A stretch of DNA of 42,018 bases from Prevotella sp. P5-108 (GTDB taxonomy: Bacteria; Bacteroidota; Bacteroidia; Bacteroidales; Paludibacteraceae): positions 1 to 42,018 of the forward strand of contig CAVHKB010000001.1 in NCBI GenBank assembly GCA_963636305.1. The letters run 5' to 3'. Shown here piece by piece: positions 16,972-39,311 of the stretch. A program made the position numbers and the translations under genes. Positions within the stretch are counted from its first letter, which is position 1, and each line of letters starts with the position of its first letter. Below the pieces are notes generated by a model. The model ran no database searches and was not told the DNA's origin. It saw only the letters and a list, made by a program, of their open reading frames with translations.

Positions 16972-17736
16972 TTAATAGATAAATGGAAATATACGCTTCA
17001 GCCGTTTCTTGTCGAACTGATCGGGAAACTCTCTCTCATACTTGTGGTATATCGAGTTGCTGCGCGGAATAAGGTTGGCGCAGGTGAACCAAAGGAACAC
17101 AAGACCCGCGTACGACCAGGTCAGCAACGCAAAACCTGCCCACTCTATAATCTCCCCCAAATAATTGGCTGAAGTCACATATTTGTATAAACCGCCCTGT
17201 GGCAGGTAATGGTTCGTGTCGCCGGGCTTCCGTAAATTCCTGATGACATGGTCGCTGTGCAAGTTTATACCCATCCCCACAAAGAAAACAATACTGCCCA
17301 ATATAAACTGCCAACTCTTCACCCACTCTGCCGAGTAGTAATTCACACCAGGTGCCAACTCAAACAACCACCGTCCCTGTATATATCCGTTCACAAGATT
17401 AAACACGATGCTCATGCCCATAATCACCAATGGCATCTTGCCGTTACCCTTCATAAGCAAAGGAAATACAAACGAACGCTGGAAATAATGCAACTCAAAG
17501 AAGAGGAAGAACAGAATATAAGGCAATGTCATCTGCACGTCCGATTTCGCCCAAAAGAAGAGCATAACCAAAAACACCGGACATTCCATCAATATCCATC
17601 CTACCTTGTTCGAAATTGTAGGACCCCACTTTGAGGATATCATCTTACCATAACCGGCATCAACAAAGTATAAGGCAATAATAACGATAACGCCGATTAG
17701 TGATACAATAAAAAGTAATGTGTTAAATTGTTCCAT
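16972..17736 (-). CDS. 3-oxo-5-alpha-steroid 4-dehydrogenase (steroid 5-alpha-reductase) family membrane protein
   Basis: 254-aa polytopic protein with a C-terminal GGLYKYVTSANYLGEIIEWAGFAL motif. Start set at ATG 17736 (MEQFNTLLFIV), because the ORF-track extension to 18006 runs through noncoding repeats. TATCTTTG -7 box at 17808-17815. Confidence 0.75.
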   Translation of the reverse strand: MEQFNTLLFIVSLIGVIVIIALYFVDAGYGKMISSKWGPTISNKVGWILMECPVFLVMLFFWAKSDVQMTLPYILFFLFFELHYFQRSFVFPLLMKGNGKMPLVIMGMSIVFNLVNGYIQGRWLFELAPGVNYYSAEWVKSWQFILGSIVFFVGMGINLHSDHVIRNLRKPGDTNHYLPQGGLYKYVTSANYLGEIIEWAGFALLTWSYAGLVFLWFTCANLIPRSNSIYHKYEREFPDQFDKKRLKRIFPFIY

Positions 17737-17807
17737 AAGCGTACTTTTTTCACAAGTCTGAGCCGTATCCTGCACGGCTCTCTCACCGCAAAAAGATAAG
17801 CAACTCG

Positions 17808-17815
17808 CAAAGATA
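17808..17815 (-). promoter_or_regulatory. -7 element TATCTTTG (minus strand) for the 5-alpha-reductase-like operon
   Basis: The reverse complement of CAAAGATA matches TAnnTTTG, 72 nt upstream of start 17736. Confidence 0.5.
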
Positions 17816-18123
17816 CGACTAATTCTTGATACTGGCAAAAAAGATAGACCTTTGTGTTCGGAAAAAATGTCCGTAGGTTCTTTTTTCTGCTTCCCGACCC
17901 TCAAAATAGAAGACAAATCCCTCCGTCCCCGCAAGCAAAAAAACTCGTCCTTCCCTCTCAATATCTGCGACCTGATGTTGTCCTTCCGAAATCTTTGGAA
18001 ACGCAAAGCGAATTGTTAAAAAATAGATGTATTTCTCCTGGCGAAAACATTCCGTTTTCCCTCCCGTTCCCTCACGGTCGCCCTCCGCAATGCCCCGTAA
18101 ACACTGACTGTTTCAAAGGTTTT

Positions 18124-18200
18124 ATATACCATTTATATAGGACGAATATAGGACGCATATAGGAAGAACATAGAATCCGTATCGGAAACATACAAAAAAC
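18124..18200 (+). repeat. Copy B of the ATATAGGACGA-type 11-bp phased array (seven units)
   Basis: Units: ATATACCATTT ATATAGGACGA ATATAGGACGC ATATAGGAAGA ACATAGAATCC GTATCGGAAAC ATACAAAAAAC. AATTGTTAA lies at 18011-18019 upstream, with C-rich CCCTC phased segments in between. Confidence 0.9.
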
Positions 18201-18227
18201 AAGGGGATCTAAAATATAAATCCCCTT
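18193..18227 (-). terminator. Rho-independent terminator downstream of panB (potentially bidirectional)
   Basis: 8-bp stem AAGGGGAT/ATCCCCTT (18201-18208 / 18220-18227) with an 11-nt loop. On the minus strand it is followed by GTTTTTTG. On the plus strand it is followed by TTTTAT. Confidence 0.65.
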
Positions 18228-18346
18228 TTATAAAACGGCTTGTTTCAACGCCTCTTGCTGCGGTACTCGTCCGTCAATGCCGTGCCAGTCGTACTGCGGT
18301 TTTCGCCTGCGTCTGCGATATGCCCGGCGTCCGCGTTCCCGCCGCG

Positions 18347-19165
18347 TCAGTACTGCTCCTCTTGGTTCGGGAAACTTCTGTCCTTCACCGCTGCAATATA
18401 CGCCTCTGTGGCTTCTTTTATCGTCTCCCCGATATTGGCAAAACGACGCAGGAACTTCGGTTGGAAACCCTGTGTAATACCCAACATATCATGCAGCACC
18501 AACACCTGTCCGTCCATCTCCCCGCCTGCACCGATACCTATCGTAGGGACCTTCACCGCCTGGGTAACCTTCGCACCCAATGCGGCAGGTATCTTTTCAT
18601 ACAACAACGAAAAGCAACCCGCTTCTTCCAATGCCAACGAATCTTCGAACAATTGTTGAGCCTCTTTCTCTTCTTTAGCGCGCAACGCATAACCGCCGAA
18701 CTGATTGACACTCTGCGGCGTCAAACCCAAATGAGCCATCACTGGAATACCCGATGCCGTCAACTTCTTCACAAGTGGGACAATCTGTCGGCCACCCTCA
18801 ATCTTAAGTCCGTCGGCACCTGTTTCTTTCATCACCCGTACTGCATTCGCCATCGCACGCTCCTCCGACTCCTGATACGAACCGAATGGCATATCAAACA
18901 ACACAAATGCACGCTGCGCCGCTTTTCTTACTCCTTTTGTTAGGAATATCATCTCATCAAGCGTTATAGGTAGTGTCGTGGAGTTACCACACACTACATT
19001 CGATGCCGAATCACCCACTAAAATAATATCTATACCTGCTGAATCAATCAGTGAGGCTAAGGTGTAATCGTATGCCGTCAGCATACTGATTTTCTCTCCG
19101 TCGGCTTTCATCTGCCGAAGAGTACGGGTACTTACCCGTTGGCTCTGTCCTGAATGTACTGACAT
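18347..19165 (-). CDS. panB: 3-methyl-2-oxobutanoate hydroxymethyltransferase (ketopantoate hydroxymethyltransferase)
   Basis: 272 aa with typical PanB sequence (MLTAYDY, ILVGDS, the DMPFGSY block, KIEGG). It begins 18 nt downstream of the preceding gene on the same strand. Confidence 0.9.
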   Translation of the reverse strand: MSVHSGQSQRVSTRTLRQMKADGEKISMLTAYDYTLASLIDSAGIDIILVGDSASNVVCGNSTTLPITLDEMIFLTKGVRKAAQRAFVLFDMPFGSYQESEERAMANAVRVMKETGADGLKIEGGRQIVPLVKKLTASGIPVMAHLGLTPQSVNQFGGYALRAKEEKEAQQLFEDSLALEEAGCFSLLYEKIPAALGAKVTQAVKVPTIGIGAGGEMDGQVLVLHDMLGITQGFQPKFLRRFANIGETIKEATEAYIAAVKDRSFPNQEEQY

Positions 19166-19183
19166 ATTATTTCTGATATAAAC

Positions 19184-20683
19184 TTATTGACGCAATTCTT
19201 TGTGGTCCTTCAACAACCGTTGCACCGCAAACTTGCCTGTCACAACCGCATTAGGCAAACCGCCCGGTGCTTGCAACCACTGACCCGCAAGATACAAGTT
19301 ATCTACCCCCTTCACACGACCCCTGTGATAAATCTTTTCGTTCTGCGAGGTAAGCGCAAAACTCATAAATGCCCCCTTATATACATTGCAATAACGGCTA
19401 TTGGTCACGGGCGTCGCCACATCCAACAACTTCAATTGCCCGCACAACTCTGAAAAACGCTTTTCTAATGCCTTCTGTACACTCTGGGCAACAAGATACT
19501 TTTCCACCTTGTATGCCTGGTAATCGCTTCTGCGCAACTCCGCCCAATAATCATAATCCTCCTCATATTGCGTCAATAGCACCTGCAAAATGCTTTTGCC
19601 TTCCGGCGAAAACGATGCCTCGTAATTGAAGTGTTTCAAAAAGCCTGTATCTACCGCACGCCCGTCTATCTCCAAGTTGTCAATATCCAATACCATAGCA
19701 CACGGAATATCACGAGTAATATGGTCCACTGCAAAATACAAGTTGACACTGCTGTAGGTCGGATATTTCTTCGGCAATCCGATAAAATGCTCATGCATAT
19801 ACTGGTCCGTATATTCTTTCGGCAACAGATTGACCATCGTATGATAAAGGTCGCAGGCTGCAATAATGTAATCTGCTTCCACGGTTATACCATTGCTGAA
19901 ACTGACAGAATAGGCGTGTCCCTCCTGTATGTTGATTCGCTCTGCCTCCCAGCCTGTATAAATCTTGCCACCAGTTGCCTTGTACCTCTCCACTATTCTG
20001 TCTGCCATACCCTTGCTCCCACCTTCAGGCAAGTCTGCATTGTCGTTGCAAAACGCTGCATATACGTAGAACAAAGAAGATACATTGTAAAACTTTGGGA
20101 AATAAACATTCAGCATCTTTCGGATAAGTGGGTTCGTAAAGCGTTCCGCATACTCCGATATAAGCATCTTCGAATAAACTCTGTGTACTTTCCCTACCTT
20201 CCTCATCGACCATACCAACTTCGCATATTCCCACAGCGACAGTTGCTCCATAGGCTTGTCTGCCACCAACGCCACATCCTGGTAGATATGCAGCAACTTG
20301 ATAAACTCGTCTATATGCTTCTTGTCTTCCGGCGCAATACGCAACAGGTCCTTGTGCAATCGGTCAATATCATGCCAGACATTCAAGGTCTGTCCCTCCA
20401 ACTCTACCTGCATAAACGACTCAGGTTGTATCACGCGCACATCATCGCCCAACACCCCTATGTCCTTCCATACTTTGTAAATAGCAGTCTTTGAGTTCGT
20501 GCCTGTAAGCCAATGCACACAATTATCAATCAAATAACCTTTGCGCTTCCACCAAGATAACAATCCGCCAGGAGTATGATGACGCTCATATACGGCACTC
20601 TCCAAACCCGCCTTCTGCGCATATATCCCAGCCGTTATTCCCGCTACGCCTCCCCCAATAATCAATACTTTTGCCATAATCAA
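19184..20683 (-). CDS. NAD(P)/FAD-dependent oxidoreductase, phytoene-desaturase (CrtI)-like family
   Basis: N-terminal Rossmann motif VLIIGGGVAGITAG. Its ~500-aa length and C-terminal GQW..PGGLPN segment are typical of amine-oxidase/CrtI-type flavoenzymes. TACTTTTG -7 box at 20757-20764. Confidence 0.65.
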   Translation of the reverse strand: MIMAKVLIIGGGVAGITAGIYAQKAGLESAVYERHHTPGGLLSWWKRKGYLIDNCVHWLTGTNSKTAIYKVWKDIGVLGDDVRVIQPESFMQVELEGQTLNVWHDIDRLHKDLLRIAPEDKKHIDEFIKLLHIYQDVALVADKPMEQLSLWEYAKLVWSMRKVGKVHRVYSKMLISEYAERFTNPLIRKMLNVYFPKFYNVSSLFYVYAAFCNDNADLPEGGSKGMADRIVERYKATGGKIYTGWEAERINIQEGHAYSVSFSNGITVEADYIIAACDLYHTMVNLLPKEYTDQYMHEHFIGLPKKYPTYSSVNLYFAVDHITRDIPCAMVLDIDNLEIDGRAVDTGFLKHFNYEASFSPEGKSILQVLLTQYEEDYDYWAELRRSDYQAYKVEKYLVAQSVQKALEKRFSELCGQLKLLDVATPVTNSRYCNVYKGAFMSFALTSQNEKIYHRGRVKGVDNLYLAGQWLQAPGGLPNAVVTGKFAVQRLLKDHKELRQ

Positions 20684-20833: not shown

Positions 20834-23140
20834 TCAGTCGTCAAACCCTGAATCATCCGCCCTCAAACGCTTCAACTGCGTATTAGGAAAATAATGCGCC
20901 AATATCTCTTTGTAACTGTATCCCTGCGTCGCCATAACTGCGGCACCAATTTGACACAACCCCACACCATGACCCCAACCTGCACCATACAGTGTAACCC
21001 CAACTTCCTCACTGTCTGCGTCCTGCTCCCTCTTGACTACAAACGCCGAACTATACAGATGCGACGGCGATAGCCATTTCCGTATTTCCAACTCCTTACC
21101 TACTGTCAACCGTCGCTTACTCCCCACTATCTCCAACTCGTATATGCGACCCGACTCACCCCTCTTCAATGGTATCAACGATTCTATCTCACCAAAATCA
21201 ATACCGCTCTTCTCTCGTACCAATGCCGATAGTTCCGCCACGCTGTAATGTACCTTCCACCGATAAAAATCCTGTGTCTCTTGGTCGTAGGTATTCAGTA
21301 CTTGCGACAAAATAGCATGGTCCTTCGTATTGCAAAAAGCCTCTGGAGATGACATAATCCATGCTTCCGCCTCACTCTCTCGTGTCAAGTCCGGTAGAAC
21401 AGCCTCCCGCGCATCTCTGATAGGGCGCAGATAAGGGTGACTCTCTTCTGCCCAGCAGTGTTCAAAACGCTCCGTCGCACCTCCGCACGACTTATAAAAA
21501 CGCGCATCACATATATGGTTCTCCCATGTAAGCACCTCACCCCAAGTAGCCTTCACCGCTTCTTCTACCGACTTACTGCTTTGGCGGGTAATACCCTGAT
21601 AACGCTGACAATGGTCGTCGGCGCATACATCAAAATGCTTGTGAGCATCACGCTCATACCAACGGATATGGCGCGTAGGTGTGTCCTCCCCGCATACTGC
21701 GTTCCCGCTACCTCCCTCCAACATCGGACGAAGCACCCAACTGCGTGAAATAACCGCATGTGCCTTCAATAGTTCTATATCACTTGCAGCATTCATCTCA
21801 CTCGAAATCACACTCTGCAGATAATCCTCCACCCCAGTCACATTAATAGCCGTTAAATGGTCCTCCTCCACAATTATCTCCAATCCACCTGCGAATCTCT
21901 GTTCTTCTTTACGCTCCCAATGAAAGTGAATGCCTATTACCACATCATGCAACCAGTAGGTGGAATATGCCTCCACCCCAGTAAAAAGCAATCTGTCATA
22001 TAACTTGCCCCTGAAACGAATCTTGCCGTCCTCTAACTCCACACTCTGTTCCCCTGTATATCGACTACCGTCCATACACAGCATATAGTCGCTTTCAAAA
22101 CGGAAGCGTATGCAAGGACTGTACAGCACGCCTACTCGAAGCGTCTTTTGTTGCTTTTCTATCATATTGTCTGTCATTTTAATCTCATCACTGCCTAACG
22201 AAACCTCTCTCACAATCTTCTCCAACAACTCTCCCGTCAACCTCCTGTAACTCTCCGAATCTGCCACAATGGCTATACCACTCATCTCCACACATGCAGG
22301 CGAAATAAGTATTTGAGCCTCTCCTTGCGCAAAGAAACACTTCGGACGCGACTCACTCCGCAGAATAACAAGCAATGCATACTCCTCCCGCTCTGCATCA
22401 TACCACGCAACCAAATTCATTCTCGGCTCCCACTCCGACCTCTCTCGCCCGTGCAATGCACCATAAATACGCAAAAACTGCTCCTTGACACACTCTCTCT
22501 TCAAACCCGCTACATAATACGCCGAACGAGCATAACGGCAAACTTTATAAACCGTCACACCATCCTCTCTCCTCAGCAACTCAATGCCTTCACCTCTTTC
22601 GCACATCCGTTGCAGCGGTAACGCATTATACGGAATCGCTTGAAAATGAAAATGATCAGGTGCCGACGCCCCACAATAAGGACCGTTATAAAATAGGGTG
22701 AAGTGTGGCAACGCCTCACACAACACAAACATATCATCTATATGAGGCAATATAGCCTGATGCTCATGCCTCGCTGACGAAATGGTATAATGTTCCTCAA
22801 AAATAGGAAACGGGTTCACTCGAATACAGTAACACCCCTCTTCTCCCTCATGCAAAGGCGACTGCCAATAGGTTGTCAACTGATTCTCTTCTAACCCGCT
22901 CGGACATAAAAAGCACGCTCGCCGTCGCAAACTCGCTGCATCTACCTCTGCCATAACCGACCTGACGCGCTCTCGGTTGAAGCGTATCTCTACCTCCAAC
23001 CCGTCACAAACACACCGCTTCTTTTCAATGTGCCTCAACTGCATATAATGAGCAGATGCCCGCCCGCAAGAGGCTATCTCGCAAGCAAACATCTGCCGTA
23101 TTCTCTCCTCCAAAGGAGAAACAGAATCAATGCTCATCAT
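20834..23140 (-). CDS. Fusion protein: N-terminal DUF4922/HIT(GalT)-like nucleotidyltransferase-phosphorylase domain plus C-terminal SpoIID/LytB-like domain
   Basis: Continuous ORF. Start set at ATG 23140, which overlaps the GT2 stop as ATGA. HFHFQ (HxHxQ) lies at 22640-22654. SpoIID-type motifs are VISSEM (Glu codon 21797-21799), CADDHCQRYQG and GAGWGHGVGLCQIGA. No signal peptide or TM segment. Confidence 0.7.
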   Translation of the reverse strand: MMSIDSVSPLEERIRQMFACEIASCGRASAHYMQLRHIEKKRCVCDGLEVEIRFNRERVRSVMAEVDAASLRRRACFLCPSGLEENQLTTYWQSPLHEGEEGCYCIRVNPFPIFEEHYTISSARHEHQAILPHIDDMFVLCEALPHFTLFYNGPYCGASAPDHFHFQAIPYNALPLQRMCERGEGIELLRREDGVTVYKVCRYARSAYYVAGLKRECVKEQFLRIYGALHGRERSEWEPRMNLVAWYDAEREEYALLVILRSESRPKCFFAQGEAQILISPACVEMSGIAIVADSESYRRLTGELLEKIVREVSLGSDEIKMTDNMIEKQQKTLRVGVLYSPCIRFRFESDYMLCMDGSRYTGEQSVELEDGKIRFRGKLYDRLLFTGVEAYSTYWLHDVVIGIHFHWERKEEQRFAGGLEIIVEEDHLTAINVTGVEDYLQSVISSEMNAASDIELLKAHAVISRSWVLRPMLEGGSGNAVCGEDTPTRHIRWYERDAHKHFDVCADDHCQRYQGITRQSSKSVEEAVKATWGEVLTWENHICDARFYKSCGGATERFEHCWAEESHPYLRPIRDAREAVLPDLTRESEAEAWIMSSPEAFCNTKDHAILSQVLNTYDQETQDFYRWKVHYSVAELSALVREKSGIDFGEIESLIPLKRGESGRIYELEIVGSKRRLTVGKELEIRKWLSPSHLYSSAFVVKREQDADSEEVGVTLYGAGWGHGVGLCQIGAAVMATQGYSYKEILAHYFPNTQLKRLRADDSGFDD

Positions 23141-24564
23141 TCCTTTCGGGCATTCATGGCTATACGAGCCTTCAACTCCCAAGTGCGTATCCTGTCTTTA
23201 TAGAGGTTGTTCTTGTTCATAGCCTCTATATCACAGTTCGCGTCTGAATTGTCGTCCCAACGACGGCAGTTGTAAACCACTTCATAGATACGACCAATCT
23301 GATACTCCCTGCTCACGCGCAATCCCACTGCATAGTCCTCCCCATATTTGGTGGTAGGGAAATTAATCTTGCGCAATAGCGGAGTATAGAACCCTCGAGG
23401 CGCACCCAATCCATTGATACGGAGTGCATTATTCCTGCCGTTATCTGGTGTCCACTCTCTGTGGTCTATCACGCCAGGAGGAAGAATGTTCCCGTCAAAG
23501 TCTGTCATACGATAGGTACCAACCACCATAGCGCAGTCCTGTTCATGAAAGGCATCTATAAACTTCTGAACCGTATGCTCGTCATAATAGGTGTCGTCCG
23601 AATCCAACTGAATGGCAAAACGACCGCATTTCGGGTGGTGTAGGGCTACATTCCAGTTTCCGCCTATCGCGTGCCAACTCTTATCCTGAGCAATATAAAT
23701 CAAGTTCTCATGACCCTCCGACACAATCTCTCGGATAATATCAACTGTACCGTCTTCAGAATTGTCATCCACAACAATCACGTTGTATTTATACTGCTTG
23801 TCCACCACCTGGTTCAATGCACTGCGTATCGCCGTGCCTATCGTGCGCACCCTGTTCTTGCACGGTATCACTACCGATGCCTCATACTCAAATCCACCCC
23901 CCTGCAAATCTATATCCTTGAATCGGGGAACAAGATATCCACCTATATCCTTCAAGTGTTGCGTGCAGGCTGCCTCCATCTCTATCTGAACACCACGGTT
24001 CTTGGGGTCCACATAGTCAAACAGTTTCTCCCCCGACTTGCGTGTATCCAACTCAACATCGTAATACAAATACTCGTTGATATGCTCCAATGCCCCGTGC
24101 TGACTAACTTTCAACCGCAAATCATACAGTCCCGCATAAGCATAATCCTTGTCCATTCTCTCTACCGCTGCTTTCAGCGCACTCGTGCGATAAAACAACA
24201 CCGAACCGAAATCAAAGTCATCTCGCAATGCGCCCATCTGGTAATCTATCACAGGAGCATTGCTGCGCTCCTCGCCCACCTGGTTAAAGTGGTCCGAGTA
24301 AACCATTGCGGCACCGCTGTCTTCTATCAACGCCTCCATTCGCTCCAAGGCAAACAGCACAAACGATAGGGTGGTGTACTTGGTGTAAATCAAAGTATAA
24401 GGAGTTGTCGTGTGCGAGGCAATAAAGCGCATATTCGCACTACTGCGCATATCTCCCTTCAGGAAATGTATCTCGTTAACGAGCGGTTGTGCCTGCAAAT
24501 TGGCTACGGTCTGTTTCACTTGTTCCTCACTCTGGAACGGAATAAAGCAATCAATGTTTTTCAT
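23137..24564 (-). CDS. Soluble family-2 glycosyltransferase with an additional degenerate GT-A-like N-terminal half
   Basis: Start at ATG 24564 (MKNIDCFIPF). The canonical GT2 half carries VVIPCKNR...VIVVDDNSEDGT...QLDSDD. The N-terminal ~230 aa has a GT-A-like pattern (CFIPF ... MVYSDH). No TM segments. Confidence 0.75.
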   Translation of the reverse strand: MKNIDCFIPFQSEEQVKQTVANLQAQPLVNEIHFLKGDMRSSANMRFIASHTTTPYTLIYTKYTTLSFVLFALERMEALIEDSGAAMVYSDHFNQVGEERSNAPVIDYQMGALRDDFDFGSVLFYRTSALKAAVERMDKDYAYAGLYDLRLKVSQHGALEHINEYLYYDVELDTRKSGEKLFDYVDPKNRGVQIEMEAACTQHLKDIGGYLVPRFKDIDLQGGGFEYEASVVIPCKNRVRTIGTAIRSALNQVVDKQYKYNVIVVDDNSEDGTVDIIREIVSEGHENLIYIAQDKSWHAIGGNWNVALHHPKCGRFAIQLDSDDTYYDEHTVQKFIDAFHEQDCAMVVGTYRMTDFDGNILPPGVIDHREWTPDNGRNNALRINGLGAPRGFYTPLLRKINFPTTKYGEDYAVGLRVSREYQIGRIYEVVYNCRRWDDNSDANCDIEAMNKNNLYKDRIRTWELKARIAMNARKE

Positions 24565-24610: not shown

Positions 24611-26593
24611 TTACAAAATATGATACTGCACAAAGGCCTCTATCGCCTCATAATTGGCTAAACCCAACTGTGCATACAACTCCGCTGTGGCATGATTCCG
24701 GTCCTCTGCACGCTGCCAGAACAAACGCTCATCATTCCCCATAAACGGCGCTGACTCCATCTGACTCTGATGTTTCAATATCGTATTACGCTTGAAACGC
24801 AACTCTTCAGGCGACATCGGAACTGCCATCTCTATCAAATCCACCTCCCATTCCATCCAAGCACCTCTGTACATCCAAATGCGGCACTTCTGCAACCATT
24901 TCTCTTTGTCCTTCAGTTCGTCTATCGCAGCCAACACTGCGTCCAAACATACCTTGTGCGTACCATGCGGGTCCGCTAAGTCACCGGCAACAAACATCTC
25001 GTCTGGCTTTATCTCTACCAATAGACGCTTCACAATATCAATGTCCTTTTGCGACAAATCACCCTTCTTTATCGTCCCCGTCTCATAGAACGGCAGATTC
25101 AAAAAGTGTATGTGAGAGGTCGGCAATCCCATATGACGGCATGCCGCTGTCGCTTCACCCCTTCGGATAAGTGCCTTGATATCCAATATCTCACGAGTAT
25201 CTCTGTCGTCCTTTTTCTCGTTGAACAAGTAATGAGTGTACTCGTTATACTTCTCCTCAATCACCTTGTCCTCCGGGCTGTGCATCTGACCGAAACCGCG
25301 CATGAAGTCCATAAAACGAACCACCTCGTCATCACACACCGCAATACAACCGCTCGTCTCGTAGGCTATATGCACATCATGACCTTGCTTAATCAAACGG
25401 GCAAATGTGCCACCCATCGAAATCACATCATCATCCGGATGCGGCGAAAATATCAACACTTTCTTTGGATATGGCTTTGCACGCTCAGGACGGTTACTGT
25501 CGTCCGCGTTGGGCTTACCACCCGGCCAACCTGTAATCGTGTGCTGCAAATCGTTGAAGATTTTTATGTTGCAGTTATAAGCCGAACCATAAATAGTTAT
25601 CAACTCGCTCAAACCGTTCTCGTTGTAGTCTTTGTTCGTCAGTTTCAGTATAGGCTTGCCCGTTTGCTGGCACAACCATACTATGGCACGCCGTGTCAAC
25701 TGGTCGTCCCACTCGCAAGAGGTCAACAACCACGGACACTTTAGTCTTGTCAACTGACCCGCTGCCGATAAGTCCAACACTACCTCCGCATTCGAATGTA
25801 ACTGCAAAGCAGAGGCAGGACACGACGGGTTACACTGCTTCTCCACTGCCGCACGAATCTGTGCCGACTTGTGTTCTCCCCAAGCAACCATAACTACCCG
25901 CTTCGCCCGAAGTATAGTACCCAAACCCATCGTTATGGCACACATCGGCACCTGCTCAACCGAACCGAACAGATTGGCGGCATCATTCTTCGATACATTG
26001 TCCAACACCACCAAACGGGTCGGACTGTTAAACTGCGTACCAGGTTCGTTGAAACCGATATTGCCGCCGCGACCGATTCCCAACAACTGAAAATCAACTC
26101 CGCCCATATCTTGCAACTTCTGCTCATAATCCATACAAGCATTCAGTATATTGCTCTTCTCCTGCGTGCCGTCTATCGTGAACACATTCTCTGCCTGAAT
26201 GTCAACCTGGTCCAACAACTGCTCTTTCAACTGACCAAAACAACCCTGCAGATTGTCTGTCAACGGGTAGTATTCAAACAGGTTGAATATAACCACATTC
26301 CTGAAACTCAGCCCCTCCTCCTTATGCAAACGCACCAATTCTTCGAACACATCAGTCATGCTCCTGCCTGCAACAAGCGACAAGATGGCAAACGAATGTT
26401 TCTTCTGCTTCGCCAGAATAACTTCCGCTATCTGACGCGCTACATACTTCGCACCTTCCTGTGCACTCGAACAAATATGCGTGTGGAGAAGTTCAAAACG
26501 GGTCAAACGCGACAACTCAAATACATCGTCCGTTTGGTAAAGTTTCTTCGCTATGTGAGTCAGCGAAATCTGTGAACTTAAATTAGTTCTCAT
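24611..26593 (-). CDS. Fusion protein: NagB-like sugar-phosphate deaminase/isomerase-fold domain plus PIG-L/LmbE-family deacetylase domain
   Basis: Start at ATG 26593 (MRTNLSSQ). NagB-like blocks are VVIFNLFEYYP and LGIGRGGNIGFNEPG. LmbE motifs are IFSPHPDDDVISMGG (HPDDD at 25427-25441) and DPHGTH. TACCTTTG -7 box at 26671-26678. Confidence 0.75.
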   Translation of the reverse strand: MRTNLSSQISLTHIAKKLYQTDDVFELSRLTRFELLHTHICSSAQEGAKYVARQIAEVILAKQKKHSFAILSLVAGRSMTDVFEELVRLHKEEGLSFRNVVIFNLFEYYPLTDNLQGCFGQLKEQLLDQVDIQAENVFTIDGTQEKSNILNACMDYEQKLQDMGGVDFQLLGIGRGGNIGFNEPGTQFNSPTRLVVLDNVSKNDAANLFGSVEQVPMCAITMGLGTILRAKRVVMVAWGEHKSAQIRAAVEKQCNPSCPASALQLHSNAEVVLDLSAAGQLTRLKCPWLLTSCEWDDQLTRRAIVWLCQQTGKPILKLTNKDYNENGLSELITIYGSAYNCNIKIFNDLQHTITGWPGGKPNADDSNRPERAKPYPKKVLIFSPHPDDDVISMGGTFARLIKQGHDVHIAYETSGCIAVCDDEVVRFMDFMRGFGQMHSPEDKVIEEKYNEYTHYLFNEKKDDRDTREILDIKALIRRGEATAACRHMGLPTSHIHFLNLPFYETGTIKKGDLSQKDIDIVKRLLVEIKPDEMFVAGDLADPHGTHKVCLDAVLAAIDELKDKEKWLQKCRIWMYRGAWMEWEVDLIEMAVPMSPEELRFKRNTILKHQSQMESAPFMGNDERLFWQRAEDRNHATAELYAQLGLANYEAIEAFVQYHIL

Positions 26594-27168: not shown

Positions 27169-28026
27169 ATGATTTTAATCGCTGACAGTGGTTCTACCAA
27201 AACCACATGGACACTCATGGCTGCTAACAGCCAAACTTCCGAGTTCTCAATGGACGGTATCAATCCTTTCTACCAGACTTCCGACGCCATTAAGAACTCT
27301 ATCGTCACACAACTCCTTCCCCAACTCTCCCACCTACTCTGGGCGGGGACTATAACTGACATCTATTTCTATGGTGCAGGATGTACACCCGAGAAAACCA
27401 AATTTGTCATATCTGCACTCGAAGGCTCGTTCAAAACTGCCAAAGCCCATGTCGAAAGTGATATGGTCGGTGCAGCAAGAGGACTGCTCGGGCGGACGCA
27501 AGGTATCGCCTGCATTCTTGGTACAGGCTCCAACTCCTGCCTCTACGACGGAGAAAAAATCATCAAGAATGTACCCGCACTCGGCTTTATTCTCGGCGAC
27601 GAAGGCAGCGGTGCTGTACTTGGCAAACGCCTCGTGGCAGATGTACTCAAAAATCAGTTGCCCGAACATATCAAAAACAAATTTCTTCAGCAATACAACC
27701 TCACGCAGGCGGAAATCATAGAGAATGTCTATCGCAAACCTTTCCCCAACCGATACCTCGCCTCTCTTTCCAAGTTCGCTGCCGAAAACATACAGGAAGA
27801 ATCCATCTACAACCTCGTTTACGAGCATTTCCGTCAGTTCGTCATCCGTAACCTCAAGCAGTATCCTTCTCTGCCCGTCGGATTTATCGGCTCCATTGCT
27901 TACTACTATGCCGATGTTCTCCGCAAGGTCATGAACGACAACAATATGCAAGTCGCACAAATACTCCAGTCGCCCATGCCAGGACTCGTGAAGTATCATG
28001 CACAAGATGCCAAACCGACTAACTGA
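27169..28026 (+). CDS. BadF/BadG/BcrA/BcrD-type ASKHA sugar kinase (GlcNAc / MurNAc kinase, MurK-like)
   Basis: 285 aa with MILIADSGSTKTTW (phosphate-1), ILGTGSNS (phosphate-2) and ILGDEGSGAVLG (adenosine motif). It sits directly upstream of murQ. Confidence 0.7.
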   Translation: MILIADSGSTKTTWTLMAANSQTSEFSMDGINPFYQTSDAIKNSIVTQLLPQLSHLLWAGTITDIYFYGAGCTPEKTKFVISALEGSFKTAKAHVESDMVGAARGLLGRTQGIACILGTGSNSCLYDGEKIIKNVPALGFILGDEGSGAVLGKRLVADVLKNQLPEHIKNKFLQQYNLTQAEIIENVYRKPFPNRYLASLSKFAAENIQEESIYNLVYEHFRQFVIRNLKQYPSLPVGFIGSIAYYYADVLRKVMNDNNMQVAQILQSPMPGLVKYHAQDAKPTN

Positions 28027-28033
28027 TAACGAT

Positions 28034-28852
28034 ATGTTTGCAAAAATAACCGAACAGCCCTCCCTACACGATAACCTCGACCAGAAATCTGTACACGAAC
28101 TATTGGTCGAAATGAACGAAGAGGACAAAAAAGTACCTCTCGCCGTCGAGAAAGCAATACCGCAGATAACCAAACTCGTCGAACAAATCGTACCACGAAT
28201 GAAACAGGGAGGACGAATCTTCTACCTTGGAGCAGGCACTTCAGGACGACTCGGCGTACTCGACGCAAGCGAAATACCACCTACCTTCGGTATGCCTCCT
28301 TCACTCGTCGTAGGACTCATCGCCGGTGGTGACACCGCCCTCCGTAATCCCGTCGAGAAAGCCGAAGACGACCTCGAAAGAGGATGGCAGGACCTCCAGA
28401 AATACAACATCAATTCCTCCGACATTCTCATCGGTATCGCCGCTTCAGGCACAACGCCCTATGTCATAGGCGCACTCCGACACGCACGCGAACAGGGAAT
28501 ACTCACCGCTTCTGTCTCCTGCAATCCCGACTCGCCCGTCGCAGCCGAAGCCGACATACCTATCGAGGCAATAGTAGGTCCCGAATTCGTTACAGGTAGC
28601 ACACGGCTCAAATCCGGCACCGCACAAAAACTCATCTGCAACATGATAACCACCACTACCATGATACAACTCGGACGAGTCAAAGGCAATCGGATGGTCA
28701 ATATGCAACTGACCAACAAGAAACTTGTCGACAGAGGAACCCGTATGCTCGTCGACGAACTCGGCATCGACTACGAACAGGCAAAGCATCTCCTGCTCAT
28801 TCACGGCTCTGTCAAAGACGCACTCGACGCCTGGCAACAACAGAAAAATTAA
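28034..28852 (+). CDS. murQ: N-acetylmuramic acid 6-phosphate etherase
   Basis: SIS-domain protein with YLGAGTSGRLGVLDASEIPPTFG, GIAASGTTPYV and the TGSTRLKSGTAQK blocks typical of MurQ. Start chosen at ATG 28034, 8 nt after the kinase stop. Confidence 0.85.
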   Translation: MFAKITEQPSLHDNLDQKSVHELLVEMNEEDKKVPLAVEKAIPQITKLVEQIVPRMKQGGRIFYLGAGTSGRLGVLDASEIPPTFGMPPSLVVGLIAGGDTALRNPVEKAEDDLERGWQDLQKYNINSSDILIGIAASGTTPYVIGALRHAREQGILTASVSCNPDSPVAAEADIPIEAIVGPEFVTGSTRLKSGTAQKLICNMITTTTMIQLGRVKGNRMVNMQLTNKKLVDRGTRMLVDELGIDYEQAKHLLLIHGSVKDALDAWQQQKN

Positions 28853-28889
28853 AATAAACAAACACCGAAAATACTATTATAGCCCGAAA

Positions 28890-28907
28890 ATATGTTGTAA
28901 AACATAT
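28890..28907. promoter_or_regulatory. Inverted repeat ATATGTT-GTAA-AACATAT, candidate operator upstream of the SusC promoter
   Basis: Perfect 7-bp arms with a 4-bp spacer, 33 nt upstream of the -7 box. No T-tract follows, so it is unlikely to be a terminator. Confidence 0.3.
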
Positions 28908-28939
28908 AATGATGGGGTATAATTCTCGTAAAATTGTAT

Positions 28940-28947
28940 TACCTTTG
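28940..28947 (+). promoter_or_regulatory. -7 element TACCTTTG for the SusC/SusD locus
   Basis: Exact TAnnTTTG match 72 nt upstream of ATG 29019. Confidence 0.55.
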
Positions 28948-29018
28948 CGACGAACTTTTTGGCAACCTTATGCGCTGTATAAGTAATCGCCTTAAGTTCT
29001 TTCAATTAACAAACCGTA

Positions 29019-32000
29019 ATGCGCATGAAAAAAACATTGCTCTTACTTGCTTGTGTTGCTTCAACCCTCTTCGCTTGGGCTGACATCACTGTTACAGGCA
29101 TAGTAACTTCCAAAGACGACGGACAACCCGTCATCGGGGCTACCGTCCTCGAAAAAGGAACTACCAATGGTACAATAACCGACTTCGACGGAAACTACCA
29201 ACTCAAAGTCGCCGACAAGGCTACACTCGTAGTCAGTTATGTCGGCATGAAAACACAAGAGGTCAAGGTTACAGGCATGAAGCATAATGTCGCACTCGCT
29301 ACAGAAGCCATCGCTATGGAAGAAGTAGTCGTCACCGCTATGGGCGTCGTACAAGAGAAAAAGCGAATGAATTTCGCAGTGCAGAATGTAACCTCCGAAT
29401 CTATCACCGCAAGCAAATCTGCTAACTTCGTCAACTCTCTGCAAGGGCAAATAGCAGGCGTCACTGTCACTAACTCAAGCAGTTCTCCTAACGCCGGCTC
29501 ACAAATCATCGTACGAGGCATATCCTCCATCAATACTGCCCAATCCAACGAACCTTTGTTCATCATGGATGGGGTCCCCTTAAGTGGAGGCGCATCTTCT
29601 GCTGCCGACATCAACCCTAACGACATCGAGAATGTAACCGTCCTCAAGGGTGCTGCGGCTTCTGCACTATACGGACAAGATGCTGCCAACGGCGTCATTA
29701 TGATTACAACCAAACGCGCACAAGCAGGTAAAATATCGGTCGCCGCTAATGCAAGTTGGCAGTTCGATACTCCCTACCGACTGCCAAATATTCAAAAAAG
29801 TTATATACCAGGCTCACAAGGTATCTATGTCGATAAAGCACAGGGAGGATGGGGTCCGTTGCTTAATCCTGGAGAGCAGATATATGATAACCTCCATAAC
29901 TTCTTCAACACAGGCTTCTATCACAAATACGATGTCAGCGTAACCGGCGGTACCGAGAAGTTCCAGGCTTATGCCTCCGCAAACTGGTCCAAAAACGACG
30001 GTATCATACCCAACGACTATAAGCAACGCTTTGGTGGACTCGTAAAAGCAACCTACAGCCCCGCTAAATGGGTCACCATCAATGCTTCTATCAATGTCAT
30101 GCAAAGCGACTCCCGCTCCACCTCCGCCGATGCAATCACAGGCACTTCAGCAATGAGCAGCCTCTATGGATGGTCAAATACAGATGATATAACCGACTAT
30201 CAACTCTCCACTGGATATCCGCGCTATATCTACTACAACGACTCCAAAAAATACAACTCCACCTATAGCCCGCTCTACGGTATCTACAACGACGGCGGAC
30301 AATCCACCTCCCTGCGTAATGTCATGAACGCTTCCGTCACATTCAAACCTGTCAAAGGGCTTGAAATCGTAGGACGCGTAGGTTACGACACCAGCAGTTC
30401 CACCTCCGAGACCTATGGGGTACCCCGTTGGGACGACTCCTATGTAACACAGTCCTATACCAAACCTACCGAACCATCAGATCCCGGCTCCACTGCTACA
30501 GCGGAAGAAAAAGCCGCCTACCAGGAGGCACTCAAAGAGTACAATACCAACCTCGCTCTCTACAACTCCTACCAGGACTATCTCAACGGCGCATATCAAA
30601 CCGACCCCTATCTCACAACCAACGACATCGCCAACATGGACAAAGCCAAACTCGGCAAGTATTCCTCCTCTGCCGGACGAAGCCAACTGCTTACTGCAGG
30701 CTTCATGGCAACTTACCGCTTGGACCTTCCAAAGGACTTCGGTATGGACTTCATGGCAGGTGGCGAGTTGAAGGCATCTAAGGGCTTCTCTATGACCAAC
30801 AGCGGTGTCGATTTCGTCATACCAGGTGTTTACTCCCTCTCCAATACTAACCCCAACGAGGTATATCTCACCGACCGTACACTCACACACTCGCAACGAC
30901 GCACCTTCGGCTACTACTACGAAGTTCGAGCCGACTACAAAGGACTTGCTTCGCTCTCTGTAACAGGACGATGGGACTGGTCCTCCACACTCAAGACTTC
31001 CCCCTACTTCTATCCGTCCGTAACAGCAGGTATCGTATTCTCTGAACTCATACCCGGACTCAATGAGACGAAAAACAACTGGTTCTCCTACGGTAAACTG
31101 CGGGGCAACTATGCAGTCGTAGGTAAAGATGCGCCAATCTATCTATTCGACCGACGCTACAAACAGTTCGCTAACTATCCCGACAACGGCTATGGTATCG
31201 ACCCTACACGCTCTTCGGCATCTGCCGATTTGCAGCCCGAAATGTCCTACTCATGGGAAATAGGTCTCGACCTCCGTTTCTTCGATAACCGTACACGCCT
31301 CGACATGGCATACTATTCCACCAAAGTCGATAACCAAATCGTAACCGTACGCGTCTCACCTGCCTCAGGCTATATCTTGCAAACCCGTAACGAAGGTGCC
31401 ATCCGTAATCAAGGTATGGAACTCACTTTGGAACAAGACATCATTCGCCGTAAGAATGTAAAGTGGACAGCAGCACTCAACTTCGGACTCAATCGCGGCA
31501 AGGTGGTCAGCCTGCCCGAGAATGTATCCGAGATAACGGGTCCCCAATACACCGACATCTTTACATCGGCTTACCTCGGTGGGTCCACCACAGGTCTTAC
31601 CGGTAAAGACTATCTGCGTACCGACGATGGCAGAATAATCTGCGATAGCGAAGGCTACCCGCAAATCAACCCCAACAAGAACCTCTATATCGGTAACCGC
31701 GAGGCGAAATTCTCTGCAGGTCTCCGTAGTACCCTCGATGTTTATGGCGTACAACTCTCTTTCTTGTTCGACGGACGGTTGGGAGGCGATGTGGTCAACA
31801 TAACGGGACGCTCCCTCATCTCTAACGGACAATCGGCTATGCTCGAGAAATATCGTGGACGGCAAGTTGTGTTCGATGGCGTCGTCGACGATGGCAATGG
31901 CAACTATGTTCCCAACACCAAGCCTATCACGCTCGACTATACCACCATCACCAACTATTTCTACAATGTGTCCTCCAACTTCATCGAAGATGGCTCCTAC

Positions 32001-32243
32001 ATACGGCTTAGTTACGTTACCGTAGGATACGATTTCGCACAACTCATGAAGTCGCAGAAAGTACTCAAAGGACTGAACCTCTCTTTCACGGCAAACAACC
32101 TTTTTGTACTCACTAAGTACACGGGAACCGACCCGCTCTGTAATGCGTCCACCTCTGGTGGCGGTACAGGCTCTGCAGGCGTCGATAACTATCCCGTGCC
32201 TTCCACAAGAAGTTATAATATATCCCTTAATGTTAAATTCTAA
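29019..32243 (+). CDS. SusC/RagA-family TonB-dependent outer-membrane transporter
   Basis: 1074 aa. Signal peptide, carboxypeptidase-regulatory-like domain (ITVTGIVTSKDDGQPVIGATV...DFDGNYQLKV), plug (NVTVLKGAAASALYGQDAANGVIMITTKR), and a C-terminal beta-barrel ending in F. There is no N-terminal STN signalling domain. ATG 29025 is an alternative start. Confidence 0.9.
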   Translation: MRMKKTLLLLACVASTLFAWADITVTGIVTSKDDGQPVIGATVLEKGTTNGTITDFDGNYQLKVADKATLVVSYVGMKTQEVKVTGMKHNVALATEAIAMEEVVVTAMGVVQEKKRMNFAVQNVTSESITASKSANFVNSLQGQIAGVTVTNSSSSPNAGSQIIVRGISSINTAQSNEPLFIMDGVPLSGGASSAADINPNDIENVTVLKGAAASALYGQDAANGVIMITTKRAQAGKISVAANASWQFDTPYRLPNIQKSYIPGSQGIYVDKAQGGWGPLLNPGEQIYDNLHNFFNTGFYHKYDVSVTGGTEKFQAYASANWSKNDGIIPNDYKQRFGGLVKATYSPAKWVTINASINVMQSDSRSTSADAITGTSAMSSLYGWSNTDDITDYQLSTGYPRYIYYNDSKKYNSTYSPLYGIYNDGGQSTSLRNVMNASVTFKPVKGLEIVGRVGYDTSSSTSETYGVPRWDDSYVTQSYTKPTEPSDPGSTATAEEKAAYQEALKEYNTNLALYNSYQDYLNGAYQTDPYLTTNDIANMDKAKLGKYSSSAGRSQLLTAGFMATYRLDLPKDFGMDFMAGGELKASKGFSMTNSGVDFVIPGVYSLSNTNPNEVYLTDRTLTHSQRRTFGYYYEVRADYKGLASLSVTGRWDWSSTLKTSPYFYPSVTAGIVFSELIPGLNETKNNWFSYGKLRGNYAVVGKDAPIYLFDRRYKQFANYPDNGYGIDPTRSSASADLQPEMSYSWEIGLDLRFFDNRTRLDMAYYSTKVDNQIVTVRVSPASGYILQTRNEGAIRNQGMELTLEQDIIRRKNVKWTAALNFGLNRGKVVSLPENVSEITGPQYTDIFTSAYLGGSTTGLTGKDYLRTDDGRIICDSEGYPQINPNKNLYIGNREAKFSAGLRSTLDVYGVQLSFLFDGRLGGDVVNITGRSLISNGQSAMLEKYRGRQVVFDGVVDDGNGNYVPNTKPITLDYTTITNYFYNVSSNFIEDGSYIRLSYVTVGYDFAQLMKSQKVLKGLNLSFTANNLFVLTKYTGTDPLCNASTSGGGTGSAGVDNYPVPSTRSYNISLNVKF

Positions 32244-32257
32244 TTCCGTTGCGCTAT

Positions 32258-34057: not shown

Positions 34058-34071
34058 CTTCTCTTACGACT

Positions 34072-34929
34072 ATGAAACACTCCCATATATTCGTTCTCGC
34101 ATTCGCTCTGCTCGCTTGCACTGCGTGCGATAAACATGACTTCATCGACGACCTCGTCATCACTGGTAATGTCGGACCTCAACCCTATTGGGTGGTCGAG
34201 AGTTCTGTCGTAACGGCAGGTGCCGATGTACCGTTCACTGCGCAGTACTATACAAGCGTCAATGGCGTTTCTATCGACCGCTCCGAAGTGTGGTACAATG
34301 TCACCGAAAACCTCGAGAAAGTGGTTACTTGCCCGTGGACAAAAAGTTTCACGTACTCCATCTCTAAAATCACCGCTTCCGAAATGCGTATCTCCCAAAA
34401 GATAAAGACTTTCCCTCATAAGGATGTTGCCGTATGGAACGACTCCATCCATGCCTACTATTTCGAAGGGACTTTCCCCGTAAGCAGTACACTCGCTTCT
34501 TTCAAATGGGAAAAACCTGCACACTACGACAACGAGAACTTTCTGAAGTATTTCGGCGAAGACTATAAACAGCATTTCAAAGATAGTCTTTATAACCTCC
34601 TTAAATACGACGATTTCAGTAATATCATTAAAGGAGCAGGTCTGCGCGATAATTTCCAGGAGTTTACCGACTCCACTTTCGATGCCAATACCAATCAGTG
34701 GGTACGACACTTCAAGTGGAACGCCGACTCCACCGACACGCCTGTTCCTGAAAAAGTAACCGAACTCTATCAGGATAGCGTTTCTTTCGAACAACTGATT
34801 TTCAATTCCGGTGAAAACTGCTACGACATCACCTACAAGCGTACCTACCAGATACGCGCACTCCTCCGTGTTTACGACGACCGAAATGTCTATGGTACTA
34901 CGGTGGCTAAAGATATAGAAATCAACTGA
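34072..34929 (+). CDS. Lipoprotein of unknown function (in the position of a SusE/F-like surface glycan-binding protein)
   Basis: Start at ATG 34072 (MKHSHIFVLAFALLACTAC, signal peptide plus lipobox). I recognise no catalytic motif. Confidence 0.6.
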   Translation: MKHSHIFVLAFALLACTACDKHDFIDDLVITGNVGPQPYWVVESSVVTAGADVPFTAQYYTSVNGVSIDRSEVWYNVTENLEKVVTCPWTKSFTYSISKITASEMRISQKIKTFPHKDVAVWNDSIHAYYFEGTFPVSSTLASFKWEKPAHYDNENFLKYFGEDYKQHFKDSLYNLLKYDDFSNIIKGAGLRDNFQEFTDSTFDANTNQWVRHFKWNADSTDTPVPEKVTELYQDSVSFEQLIFNSGENCYDITYKRTYQIRALLRVYDDRNVYGTTVAKDIEIN

Positions 34930-34945
34930 TAAATCCTGTTTTGCT

Positions 34946-36643: not shown

Positions 36644-36646
36644 ACA

Positions 36647-39211: not shown

Positions 39212-39311
39212 AAAAGAAATAATATAAGATAACAAATTAACCGTTGTGGAGTACCGCTTGACGGGTCTTGCGGAACAAAACGACAATTTACTAACATTAA
39301 TCTATCTATTT

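Follow-up and report, generated by a model that had tools for sequence, protein, structure and literature searches.

The Fusion Gene and Its Junction

The contig CAVHKB010000001.1 of Prevotella sp. P5-108 (assembly GCA_963636305.1; Bacteroidales, Paludibacteraceae) was analysed over positions 1 to 42,018 of its forward strand, a stretch that is referred to below as the window. On its minus strand, at 20834-23140, lies an open reading frame (ORF) of 768 amino acids (aa) that begins with ATG and the residues MMSIDS. An earlier note, made from the sequence alone, had described it as one ORF that joins a HIT-like domain to a SpoIID-like domain and lacks an export signal. The join is borne out by the ORF call, Pfam and NCBIfam: a DUF4922 domain of the GalT-type HIT kind is followed by a SpoIID/LytB-like domain, and hydropathy reveals no signal peptide. 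The motifs VISSEM, HFHFQ and GWGHGVG that the note had quoted are found where it had placed them. The start codon overlaps the TGA of an upstream glycosyltransferase family 2 (GT2) gene (ATGA, 23140-23137), an arrangement typical of a co-translated operon; an alternative TTG start at 23182 would add 14 residues, which are not hydrophobic. An exact-sequence look-up of the window protein gave no match, and a relative with 98% identity (P0001) was taken as a stand-in; the identical 768-aa gene call is present on a public contig that is 98% identical (GCA_963654935.1, CAVKCY010000001.1). A scan for terminators and promoters downstream of the ORF found none, with a promoter model that does not cover Bacteroidetes.

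The two domains are connected by a linker (aa 314-330; 22151-22201, minus strand), delimited from the sequence and from the alignment with a split relative (locus L009), which contains two in-frame ATG codons, Met322 (22177-22175) and Met326 (22165-22163). In L009, which is 74% identical, the TGA of the DUF4922 gene overlaps the ATG of a separate SpoIID-like gene, and this ATG aligns with Met326; the difference in frame between L009 and the window is accounted for by a small indel upstream of the aligned codon. The earlier idea that the junction holds a former start codon is thus supported by the split in L009, but the alignment identifies the relic as the second ATG, Met326, and not the first. 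The out-of-frame TAA reported there is present as described; it does not serve as the stop codon in L009.

It had been left open whether the join reflects an evolutionary gene fusion or a one-base assembly error that hides two genes. The fusion is real. L009, L006 and L025 have two genes that are split exactly at the junction, and both fused and split forms occur among the 80 related loci described below. The existence of these two-gene relatives, together with the small indel that separates the junctions, is what could be said for an assembly or frameshift artefact, or for a pseudogene that merges two genes. However, independent assemblies with identities of 98, 88, 86 and 69-73% show the same fused frame, as do many further lineages and hundreds of species, some of them only about 40% identical, and both halves are strongly conserved. 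As the frame is fused in so many independent assemblies, an assembly error is excluded, and we give the artefact in any form next to no weight.

Two Domains with Intact Signatures

The N-terminal half (aa 1-320; 22181-23140, minus strand) is a two-lobed HIT/GalT-like domain according to Pfam, Foldseek and an AlphaFold2 (AF2) model, whose per-residue confidence (pLDDT) is mostly 80-94 in this part. Pfam DUF4922 (PF16269) matches aa 23-169 with an E-value of 1e-42 and 145.8 bits, against a cut-off of 23.6. A Foldseek search of the PDB with the model recovered the yeast diadenosine tetraphosphate (Ap4A) phosphorylase Apa2 (4i5t) over 323-336 columns, with a TM-score (normalised to the target) of 0.55-0.62 and an E-value of 2e-8, and the domain has the two-lobed (pseudo-dimeric) HIT fold; the second match was a DUF4931 protein. 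The gathering cut-off of the family Ap4A_phos_N (PF19327), 23.1 bits, is missed by the window protein (19.7 bits) and reached by a Prevotella protein in which GT2, DUF4922 and SpoIID-like parts form one chain (L020, 25.3 bits).

An alignment of 13 sequences with 45-73% identity showed that C76, C79, H117, H163, H165 and Q167 are invariant in this domain. The last three belong to H163-F-H165-F-Q167 (22640-22654, minus strand), the HxHxQ nucleotidyl-histidine motif, of which the His and Gln residues are invariant in an alignment of 120 sequences as well. The pair C76-x-x-C79 (22904-22915, minus strand) may form a GalT-like zinc site with H117 and H163; together with HxHxQ, this pattern is reminiscent of E. 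coli GalT, of its nucleophile and its zinc site (C52/C55/H115/H164). The two-lobed fold, HxHxQ, the CxxC with His and the Pfam family are all common to the window domain and the GalT-branch HIT enzymes Apa2, VTC2 and GDPGP1, and the N-terminal domain therefore looks like a HIT nucleotidyl-transferase or nucleotide-sugar phosphorylase of the GalT/Apa2 type. DUF4922 is the domain of the GDP-D-glucose phosphorylase GDPGP1 and the GDP-L-galactose phosphorylase VTC2 (PMC7041677). The sequence identity to Apa2 is only about 14%, and for none of the characterised enzymes of this branch has a coupling to a GT2 and a peptidoglycan-type glycan-cleaving domain been described.

The C-terminal half has the SpoIID/LytB lytic-transglycosylase fold, as judged from profiles and from the model. 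It opens with a beta-rich leader subdomain (aa 331-425; 21866-22150, minus strand), defined from the secondary structure of the AF2 model, at which stand-alone SpoIID-like ORFs start. The catalytic domain follows (aa 430-758; 20867-21853, minus strand) and is matched over this whole length by NCBIfam SpoIID_LytB (TIGR02669; 7e-53, 180.2 bits against a cut-off of 83.3), while Pfam SpoIID (PF08486) covers aa 426-539 (9e-24, 84.3 bits against 23). The sporulation equivalog TIGR02870 (stage II sporulation protein D) was not reached, with 136.6 bits against 234.75. Foldseek aligned the C-terminal part with the SpoIID structures of B. anthracis and C. difficile (4rwr and 5i1t; E 1e-9 to 1e-8), and a profile-to-PDB sequence search found the same two structures, in agreement with the fold search.

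The profile-to-PDB alignment places Glu448 (codon 21797-21799, minus strand), in the motif VISSEM, on VVASEM/VLAGEM of the solved SpoIIDs. The residues of H500-x5-C506-x3-H510-C511 (21608-21643, minus strand) resemble the zinc site of C. difficile SpoIID, a similarity of pattern only, and the GWGHGVG block (aa 721-727; 20960-20980, minus strand) aligns with GFGHGVGMSQ of 4rwr. E448, the four His and Cys residues and the GWGHG-G block are all invariant in the 13-sequence alignment. In C. difficile SpoIID, E101 is catalytic, and H134, C140, H145 and C146 bind zinc (PMC6221140). A family-specific insert of about 70 residues (aa ~560-630; 21251-21463, minus strand), recognised from the alignments and of low pLDDT, contains the invariant C562, P583-D-L-T586, C603 and D619-Q-E-T622; it has no counterpart in the sporulation SpoIIDs and may bind an additional metal or act as a loop that sets specificity.

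The window domain thus shares with the Bacillus and Clostridioides SpoIIDs, sporulation lytic transglycosylases that act on denuded glycan, the fold, the TIGR02669 model, the V-x-S/G-E-M motif, the H/C zinc pattern of the C. difficile enzyme and a C-terminal block of the GxGHGVGMSQ type. It differs from them in lacking a membrane anchor or signal peptide, in scoring below the equivalog cut-off, in its fusion to a HIT domain, in residing in a non-sporulating host, and in the ~95-aa beta leader and the cysteine-bearing insert. Because the folds match and the catalytic signatures are intact, both the DUF4922 and the SpoIID-like halves look like working enzymes. The AF2 model of the whole protein has a mean pLDDT of 76.6 and is less confident in parts of the C-terminal domain than in the N-terminal one.

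A Three-Component Module

Among 5.8 billion proteins searched, about 8000 are homologues, a number that, with the E-values, excludes chance. The best 120 are nearly all 737-777 aa long with both Pfam domains, share 44-98% identity with the query and come from Bacteroidales under the names 'DUF4922 domain-containing protein' or 'SpoIID/LytB domain protein'; their alignment shows a conservation of at least 98% at 199 query positions, which are spread across both halves. When one genome per species was scanned, at least 594 species proved to have a relative, and 80 loci were fetched, with ORFs called and clustered.

The GT2 gene proved to be the obligate partner of the fusion, being fused to it or lying immediately upstream in about 74 of the 80 loci. 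In nearly half of the loci (39), with examples from Prevotella, Segatella, Alloprevotella and Paraprevotella, GT2, DUF4922 and SpoIID-like parts form a single polypeptide of ~1210-1320 aa; such triple fusions (for example L020, 6474-10259, with domains confirmed by Pfam, and L021) lie directly upstream of a gene for an AmpG-like transporter of the major facilitator superfamily (MFS). The type seen in the window, a separate GT2 followed by a DUF4922-SpoIID fusion, accounts for 23 loci (for example L001-L005, L007 and L030), two of which (L044 and L057) look like triple fusions truncated by the contig end. All three genes are separate in 16 loci, with examples from Bacteroides clarus, Phocaeicola, Dysgonomonas, Odoribacter and Muribaculaceae, and two loci (L025 and L065) are of another or partial form. 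An exhaustive HMMER search with the N-terminal domain alone gave 1287 clusters at 50% identity; the 150 best of these comprised 130 stand-alone DUF4922 proteins, 12 DUF4922-SpoIID fusions, two triple fusions and six GT2-DUF4922 fusions, the GT2-DUF4922 type without SpoIID measuring 778-831 aa (P0318, P0319, P0340 and P0345).

A neighbour-joining tree of the SpoIID-like domains requires at least eight changes between split and fused states, and places the window and L001 as a fused clade nested among the split relatives L009, L025, L006 and L065. The fusion is one interchangeable state of a three-component module of GT2, DUF4922 and SpoIID-like parts, and the three genes form one functional unit, as they fuse in every combination. 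Six of the loci with a typical Bacteroidales arrangement (L009, L032, L059, L063, L064 and L069) carry the titles Clostridium sp., Lachnospiraceae, Faecalibacillus, Butyricicoccaceae or Eggerthellaceae ('cleanbin'); these contigs are probably mislabelled or chimeric bins.

The GT2 partner of the window (23137-24564, minus strand; its stop codon overlaps the start of the fusion gene) is a soluble protein of 475 aa without a transmembrane helix. It is unusually conserved, with 72-93% identity across the sampled Bacteroidales, and when the window was compared with a Paludibacter genome, the GT2 showed 89% identity and the fusion protein 55%, apparently on the same contig. By sequence it resembles two-domain polymerases such as the chondroitin polymerase K4CP (3e-17), and weakly so by fold. 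The N-terminal domain of ~225 aa has a beta-alpha-beta pattern, and Pfam gave no match to the first 224 residues even at E = 10; this domain might be a degenerate second GT-A domain of the kind seen in K4CP. The Foldseek matches of the GT2 (IspDF, K4CP and SpsA, with TM-scores of about 0.2) were set aside as unreliable hints from a poor model.

Localisation

Export signals were judged by hydropathy alone. The window protein has no hydrophobic segment at its N-terminus, where the highest Kyte-Doolittle mean over 12 residues is 0.87 within the first 40 aa, and no convincing transmembrane helix, as only one 19-residue stretch exceeds 1.6 (1.64, at aa 275), and it belongs to the C-lobe of the HIT domain. 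No signal peptide or transmembrane helix was detected among the 120 homologues. None was seen either at the start of the DUF4922 proteins or the 39 triple fusions, apart from two or three probable mis-called starts, and the same holds for 18 short (<520 aa) SpoIID-like ORFs that are stand-alone or unlinked from DUF4922, all without a signal peptide; these begin with M..EPKV.VGI and run straight into the first beta strand. The NamZ genes of the same loci, used as a control, score 1.9-3.4 on a 10-residue hydropathy measure, with seven of the eight shown at 2.5 or more. The lack of an export signal claimed for the window protein thus extends to the whole family, stand-alone SpoIID-like ORFs included, while the NamZ controls are positive. 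The fusion to two nucleotide-dependent enzymes is an independent argument for the cytoplasm, and all parts of the module are predicted to reside there.

Genomic Context

A gene for an AmpG-like MFS protein is among the first three downstream genes in 66 of the 80 loci, and its best NCBIfam match is TIGR00901, the AmpG muropeptide transporter family (E 1e-45 to 1e-50). In several loci (L008, 10267-12138; L010, L026, L028, L032, L049 and L074), a longer variant of ~615-670 aa, with a soluble insertion of ~200 aa between the two halves, replaces or accompanies the ordinary AmpG-like gene of ~430 aa. Loci of the Bacteroides type continue after AmpG with NamZ, a flavin adenine dinucleotide (FAD)/Fe-S dehydrogenase that resembles D-lactate dehydrogenase, an HGSNAT/NagX-like membrane protein, a BadF/BadG-type sugar kinase and MurQ; NamZ, MurQ, a MurK-like kinase and a MurT-like membrane protein are present in loci of the Bacteroides/Dysgonomonas type. 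In the Prevotella type, the triple fusion and the AmpG-like gene are the only ones conserved together, and the further neighbours RlmN, PdxA, DUF4837, LptE, SecG and a sigma-54 activator were dropped from consideration as housekeeping genes.

In the window itself, the operon starts with a gene of 660 aa (24611-26593, minus strand) for a fusion of a NagB-like deaminase and a PIG-L/LmbE deacetylase (NCBIfam PRK02122, 983 bits), which may combine deacetylation and deamination of N-acetylglucosamine 6-phosphate (GlcNAc-6-P). This gene was rejected as a conserved partner of the module, being adjacent only in the close relatives L001, L006 and L009. Divergent from the operon are a MurK-like sugar kinase (27169-28026, plus strand) and the N-acetylmuramic acid (MurNAc) 6-phosphate etherase MurQ (27998-28852, plus strand; 381 bits), followed by SusC/SusD. 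NamZ, an exo-beta-N-acetylmuramidase, is encoded elsewhere in the window (271-1506, plus strand). The window locus is an amino-sugar and peptidoglycan utilisation region, as is evident from the presence of the NagB-LmbE, MurK-like, MurQ, SusC/D, NamZ and D-lactate-dehydrogenase-like genes.

Comparison with Known Pathways

In Tannerella forsythia, the genes Tanf_08345-08385 form a peptidoglycan-scavenging operon with the order 'xanthan lyase', gtf, gtf, lytB, ampG, ybbC/namZ1, murT, murK and murQ (PMC5388701). Tanf_08360 has been called 'putative lytic transglycosylase TfLytB' or 'amidase enhancer precursor', and Tanf_08350 and Tanf_08355 'putative glycosyltransferases' of unknown function (PMC5388701, bioRxiv 10.1101/2021.12.02.470905). 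AmpG of this organism imports the disaccharides GlcNAc-1,6-anhydro-MurNAc (GlcNAc-anhMurNAc) and GlcNAc-MurNAc and is needed for growth on peptidoglycan fragments (PMC5388701, PMC7670621). GlcNAc-anhMurNAc supports growth, while no AnmK orthologue is predicted; lytic transglycosylase activity was observed in extracts, and the processing of the imported fragments was stated to be an open question (PMC7670621). The literature search found no functional characterisation of any member of the family under study and no mention of the missing export signal or of the fusions.

The T. forsythia type of order, GT2-DUF4922-SpoIID-like-AmpG-NamZ-MurT-MurK-MurQ, was recovered in loci of Bacteroides, Phocaeicola, Dysgonomonas and Muribaculaceae (L011, L013, L017 and L042). 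The same enzymes are encoded in the window in a partly different arrangement, with the NagB-LmbE gene at the head of the operon and no AmpG beside the module. Whereas T. forsythia has three separate genes, of which the DUF4922 gene was apparently annotated as the second 'glycosyltransferase', DUF4922 and SpoIID-like parts are one polypeptide in the window. Peptidoglycan recycling in E. coli (AmpG-NagZ-AmpD-AnmK-MurQ) shares with these loci an AmpG-type importer and MurQ, and thereby the logic of converting an imported disaccharide into GlcNAc-6-P. The difference is that the GT2/DUF4922/SpoIID-like module sits where the steps of splitting the disaccharide and opening the anhydro ring are expected.

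Proposed Role and Alternatives

Taken together, the module is probably a cytoplasmic processor of the GlcNAc-anhMurNAc and GlcNAc-MurNAc imported by AmpG, a general role to which we assign a probability of roughly 0.6. The intracellular glycan substrate suggested in the earlier note is strengthened by the context, since the module is nearly always found beside an AmpG-like importer and genes of MurNAc catabolism; the substrate is likely to be a peptidoglycan disaccharide brought in by import, and less so the product made by the neighbouring GT2, which had also been considered.

In this role, the module would take over the steps performed in E. coli by NagZ and AnmK. The pathway would need two activities: one to separate GlcNAc from MurNAc, and one to convert 1,6-anhydro-MurNAc into a form that can be used by MurK or AmgK. 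For these, the operon has exactly three uncharacterised enzyme domains at its disposal. The SpoIID-like domain would be the natural candidate for glycosidic chemistry at MurNAc or 1,6-anhydro-MurNAc. It might open the anhydro ring by running the lytic transglycosylase reaction in its microscopic reverse, the acceptor being water or a different molecule, or it might cleave a MurNAc-beta-1,4-GlcNAc bond. The inverting GT2 and the HIT enzyme could pass a sugar between them via an intermediate linked to uridine diphosphate (UDP): a glycoside and UDP would give a UDP-sugar, which with inorganic phosphate would give the sugar 1-phosphate and UDP, the net result being a phosphorolysis with catalytic UDP and a cleavage that conserves energy. 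Alternatively, a uridylyl exchange of the GalT type might yield UDP-MurNAc. The products would feed the catabolism by MurK, MurQ and NagB-LmbE, all encoded in the window, or the salvage of UDP-MurNAc and UDP-GlcNAc. The assignment of steps and directions to the individual domains is speculative. The scheme in its full form would have a lytic-transglycosylase-fold enzyme open or transfer the anhydro-MurNAc end, coupled to a reverse GT2 and a HIT phosphorylase, so that the disaccharide is split with the energy of the glycosidic bond conserved in a UDP-sugar or sugar 1-phosphate, as a non-orthologous replacement of NagZ and AnmK; we regard it as tentative and, as a whole, doubtful. Rough textbook free energies for a direct conversion of anhMurNAc and UDP to UDP-MurNAc, by reverse lytic transglycosylase and reverse GT2 reactions, were judged unfavourable unless the product is pulled downstream, and this route is kept as a sub-variant only.

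Several points weigh against a role in processing imported disaccharides. We know of no precedent for the opening of anhydro-MurNAc by a lytic-transglycosylase fold, nor for reverse GT2 catalysis coupled to a HIT phosphorylase, and it is equally conceivable that the GT2 is biosynthetic. With 156-171 bits, the AmpG-like proteins stay below the curated NCBIfam cut-off of 350; the 42-kb window contains no AmpG-like gene, and in the window lineage the gene next downstream encodes an unrelated FAD oxidase. For the SpoIID part, the AF2 model is of only moderate quality, with a pLDDT of 33-60 over aa 480-630, and for the GT2 it is unusable (48.7). The equivalence to Tanf_08350, Tanf_08355 and Tanf_08360 relies on gene order and published annotations and not on sequence comparison, and the literature search yielded no biochemical or genetic datum for any member.

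The GT2 is also the starting point of a quite different explanation, in which the module is biosynthetic: the GT2 would build a cytoplasmic beta-linked oligosaccharide of the N-acetylhexosamine type from a UDP-sugar, the HIT enzyme would supply or proof-read the nucleotide sugar, the SpoIID-like domain would cut the product to an anhydro-ended fragment, and the AmpG-like MFS protein would export this fragment, which might serve, for instance, as a signal or as part of the envelope. GT2 enzymes are normally synthetic, this one resembles the two-domain polymerases of the K4CP type, and the very strong constraint on it in the Paludibacter comparison would fit such a role. However, AmpG of T. forsythia, which occupies the same relative position, was shown experimentally to be an importer; the recurrent neighbours (NamZ, MurK, MurQ, NagB-LmbE and SusC/D) are catabolic or serve salvage; and the GT2, unlike processive synthases, has no transmembrane segment. 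We therefore consider a biosynthetic module unlikely.

The two other explanations concern the SpoIID-like domain, and both are less probable still. It might be a non-catalytic ligand-binding module that senses muropeptides or anhydro-MurNAc and regulates or targets the HIT and GT2 enzymes, a role with which a fusion to enzymes is compatible and for which the insert at aa 560-630 could have altered the cleft. The invariance of the Glu, the zinc-motif residues and GWGHGVG in at least 120 sequences down to 44% identity is nevertheless more than binding alone would require, and makes a mere sensor improbable. To our knowledge, all characterised SpoIID/LytB proteins act outside the membrane, which raises the question of whether the domain is a lytic transglycosylase of the usual extracytoplasmic kind, or an 'amidase enhancer LytB', and is exported by a non-classical route with the HIT domain as an unrelated passenger. 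The annotation of the T. forsythia gene as an 'amidase enhancer precursor' and the lytic transglycosylase activity in extracts of that organism agree with this. Against it stand the lack of a signal peptide or transmembrane helix in three architectures, whose secreted neighbours have obvious ones, the recurrent fusion to two nucleotide-dependent and hence cytoplasmic enzymes, and the many invariant cysteines in the protein; a periplasmic enzyme is accordingly very improbable.

Significance

The fusion itself is not new, as it belongs to a catalogued and uncharacterised family ('DUF4922 domain-containing protein'). What appears to be new is a putative cytoplasmic enzyme of the lytic-transglycosylase type that is joined with a GT2 and a HIT nucleotidyl-transferase into a single unit for the peptidoglycan salvage of Bacteroidales; no statement of such a unit was found in the literature searched. 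Bacteroidales are dominant in the human gut and include oral pathogens, and they release and consume muropeptides that signal to the NOD receptors of the host. Processing of imported disaccharides by this module would turn the acknowledged question of their fate in T. forsythia into a short list of testable reactions, for which the single polypeptide of Prevotella is the most convenient object for biochemistry and structural work. If true, a lytic-transglycosylase fold at work inside the cell would widen the view of this enzyme class, and a replacement of NagZ and AnmK would define a Bacteroidales route of cell-wall recycling and scavenging.

Other Genes of the Window

Two further regions of the window contain genes that may be related to peptidoglycan or amino sugars. 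At 271-4318 (plus strand), NamZ overlaps the start of a 953-aa FAD-oxidase/4Fe-4S/CCG protein that resembles D-lactate or glycolate dehydrogenases and may oxidise the D-lactate released by MurQ; the pair of NamZ and dehydrogenase is also found after AmpG in B. clarus (L013). The region 27169-41840 (plus strand) is a putative polysaccharide utilisation locus (PUL) with the MurK-like kinase, MurQ, SusC, SusD, an unknown ORF of 293 aa, a PKD-domain protein, a GHL10 (PF02638) protein of 854 aa and an 864-aa protein with a weak Listeria-Bacteroides repeat, and could be a PUL for peptidoglycan or amino sugars. Downstream of the fusion gene, at 16972-20683 (minus strand), are genes for an FAD protein of the phytoene-desaturase/amine-oxidase family, panB and a steroid-5-alpha-reductase-like membrane protein, which have no connection with peptidoglycan and whose conservation is limited to L001.

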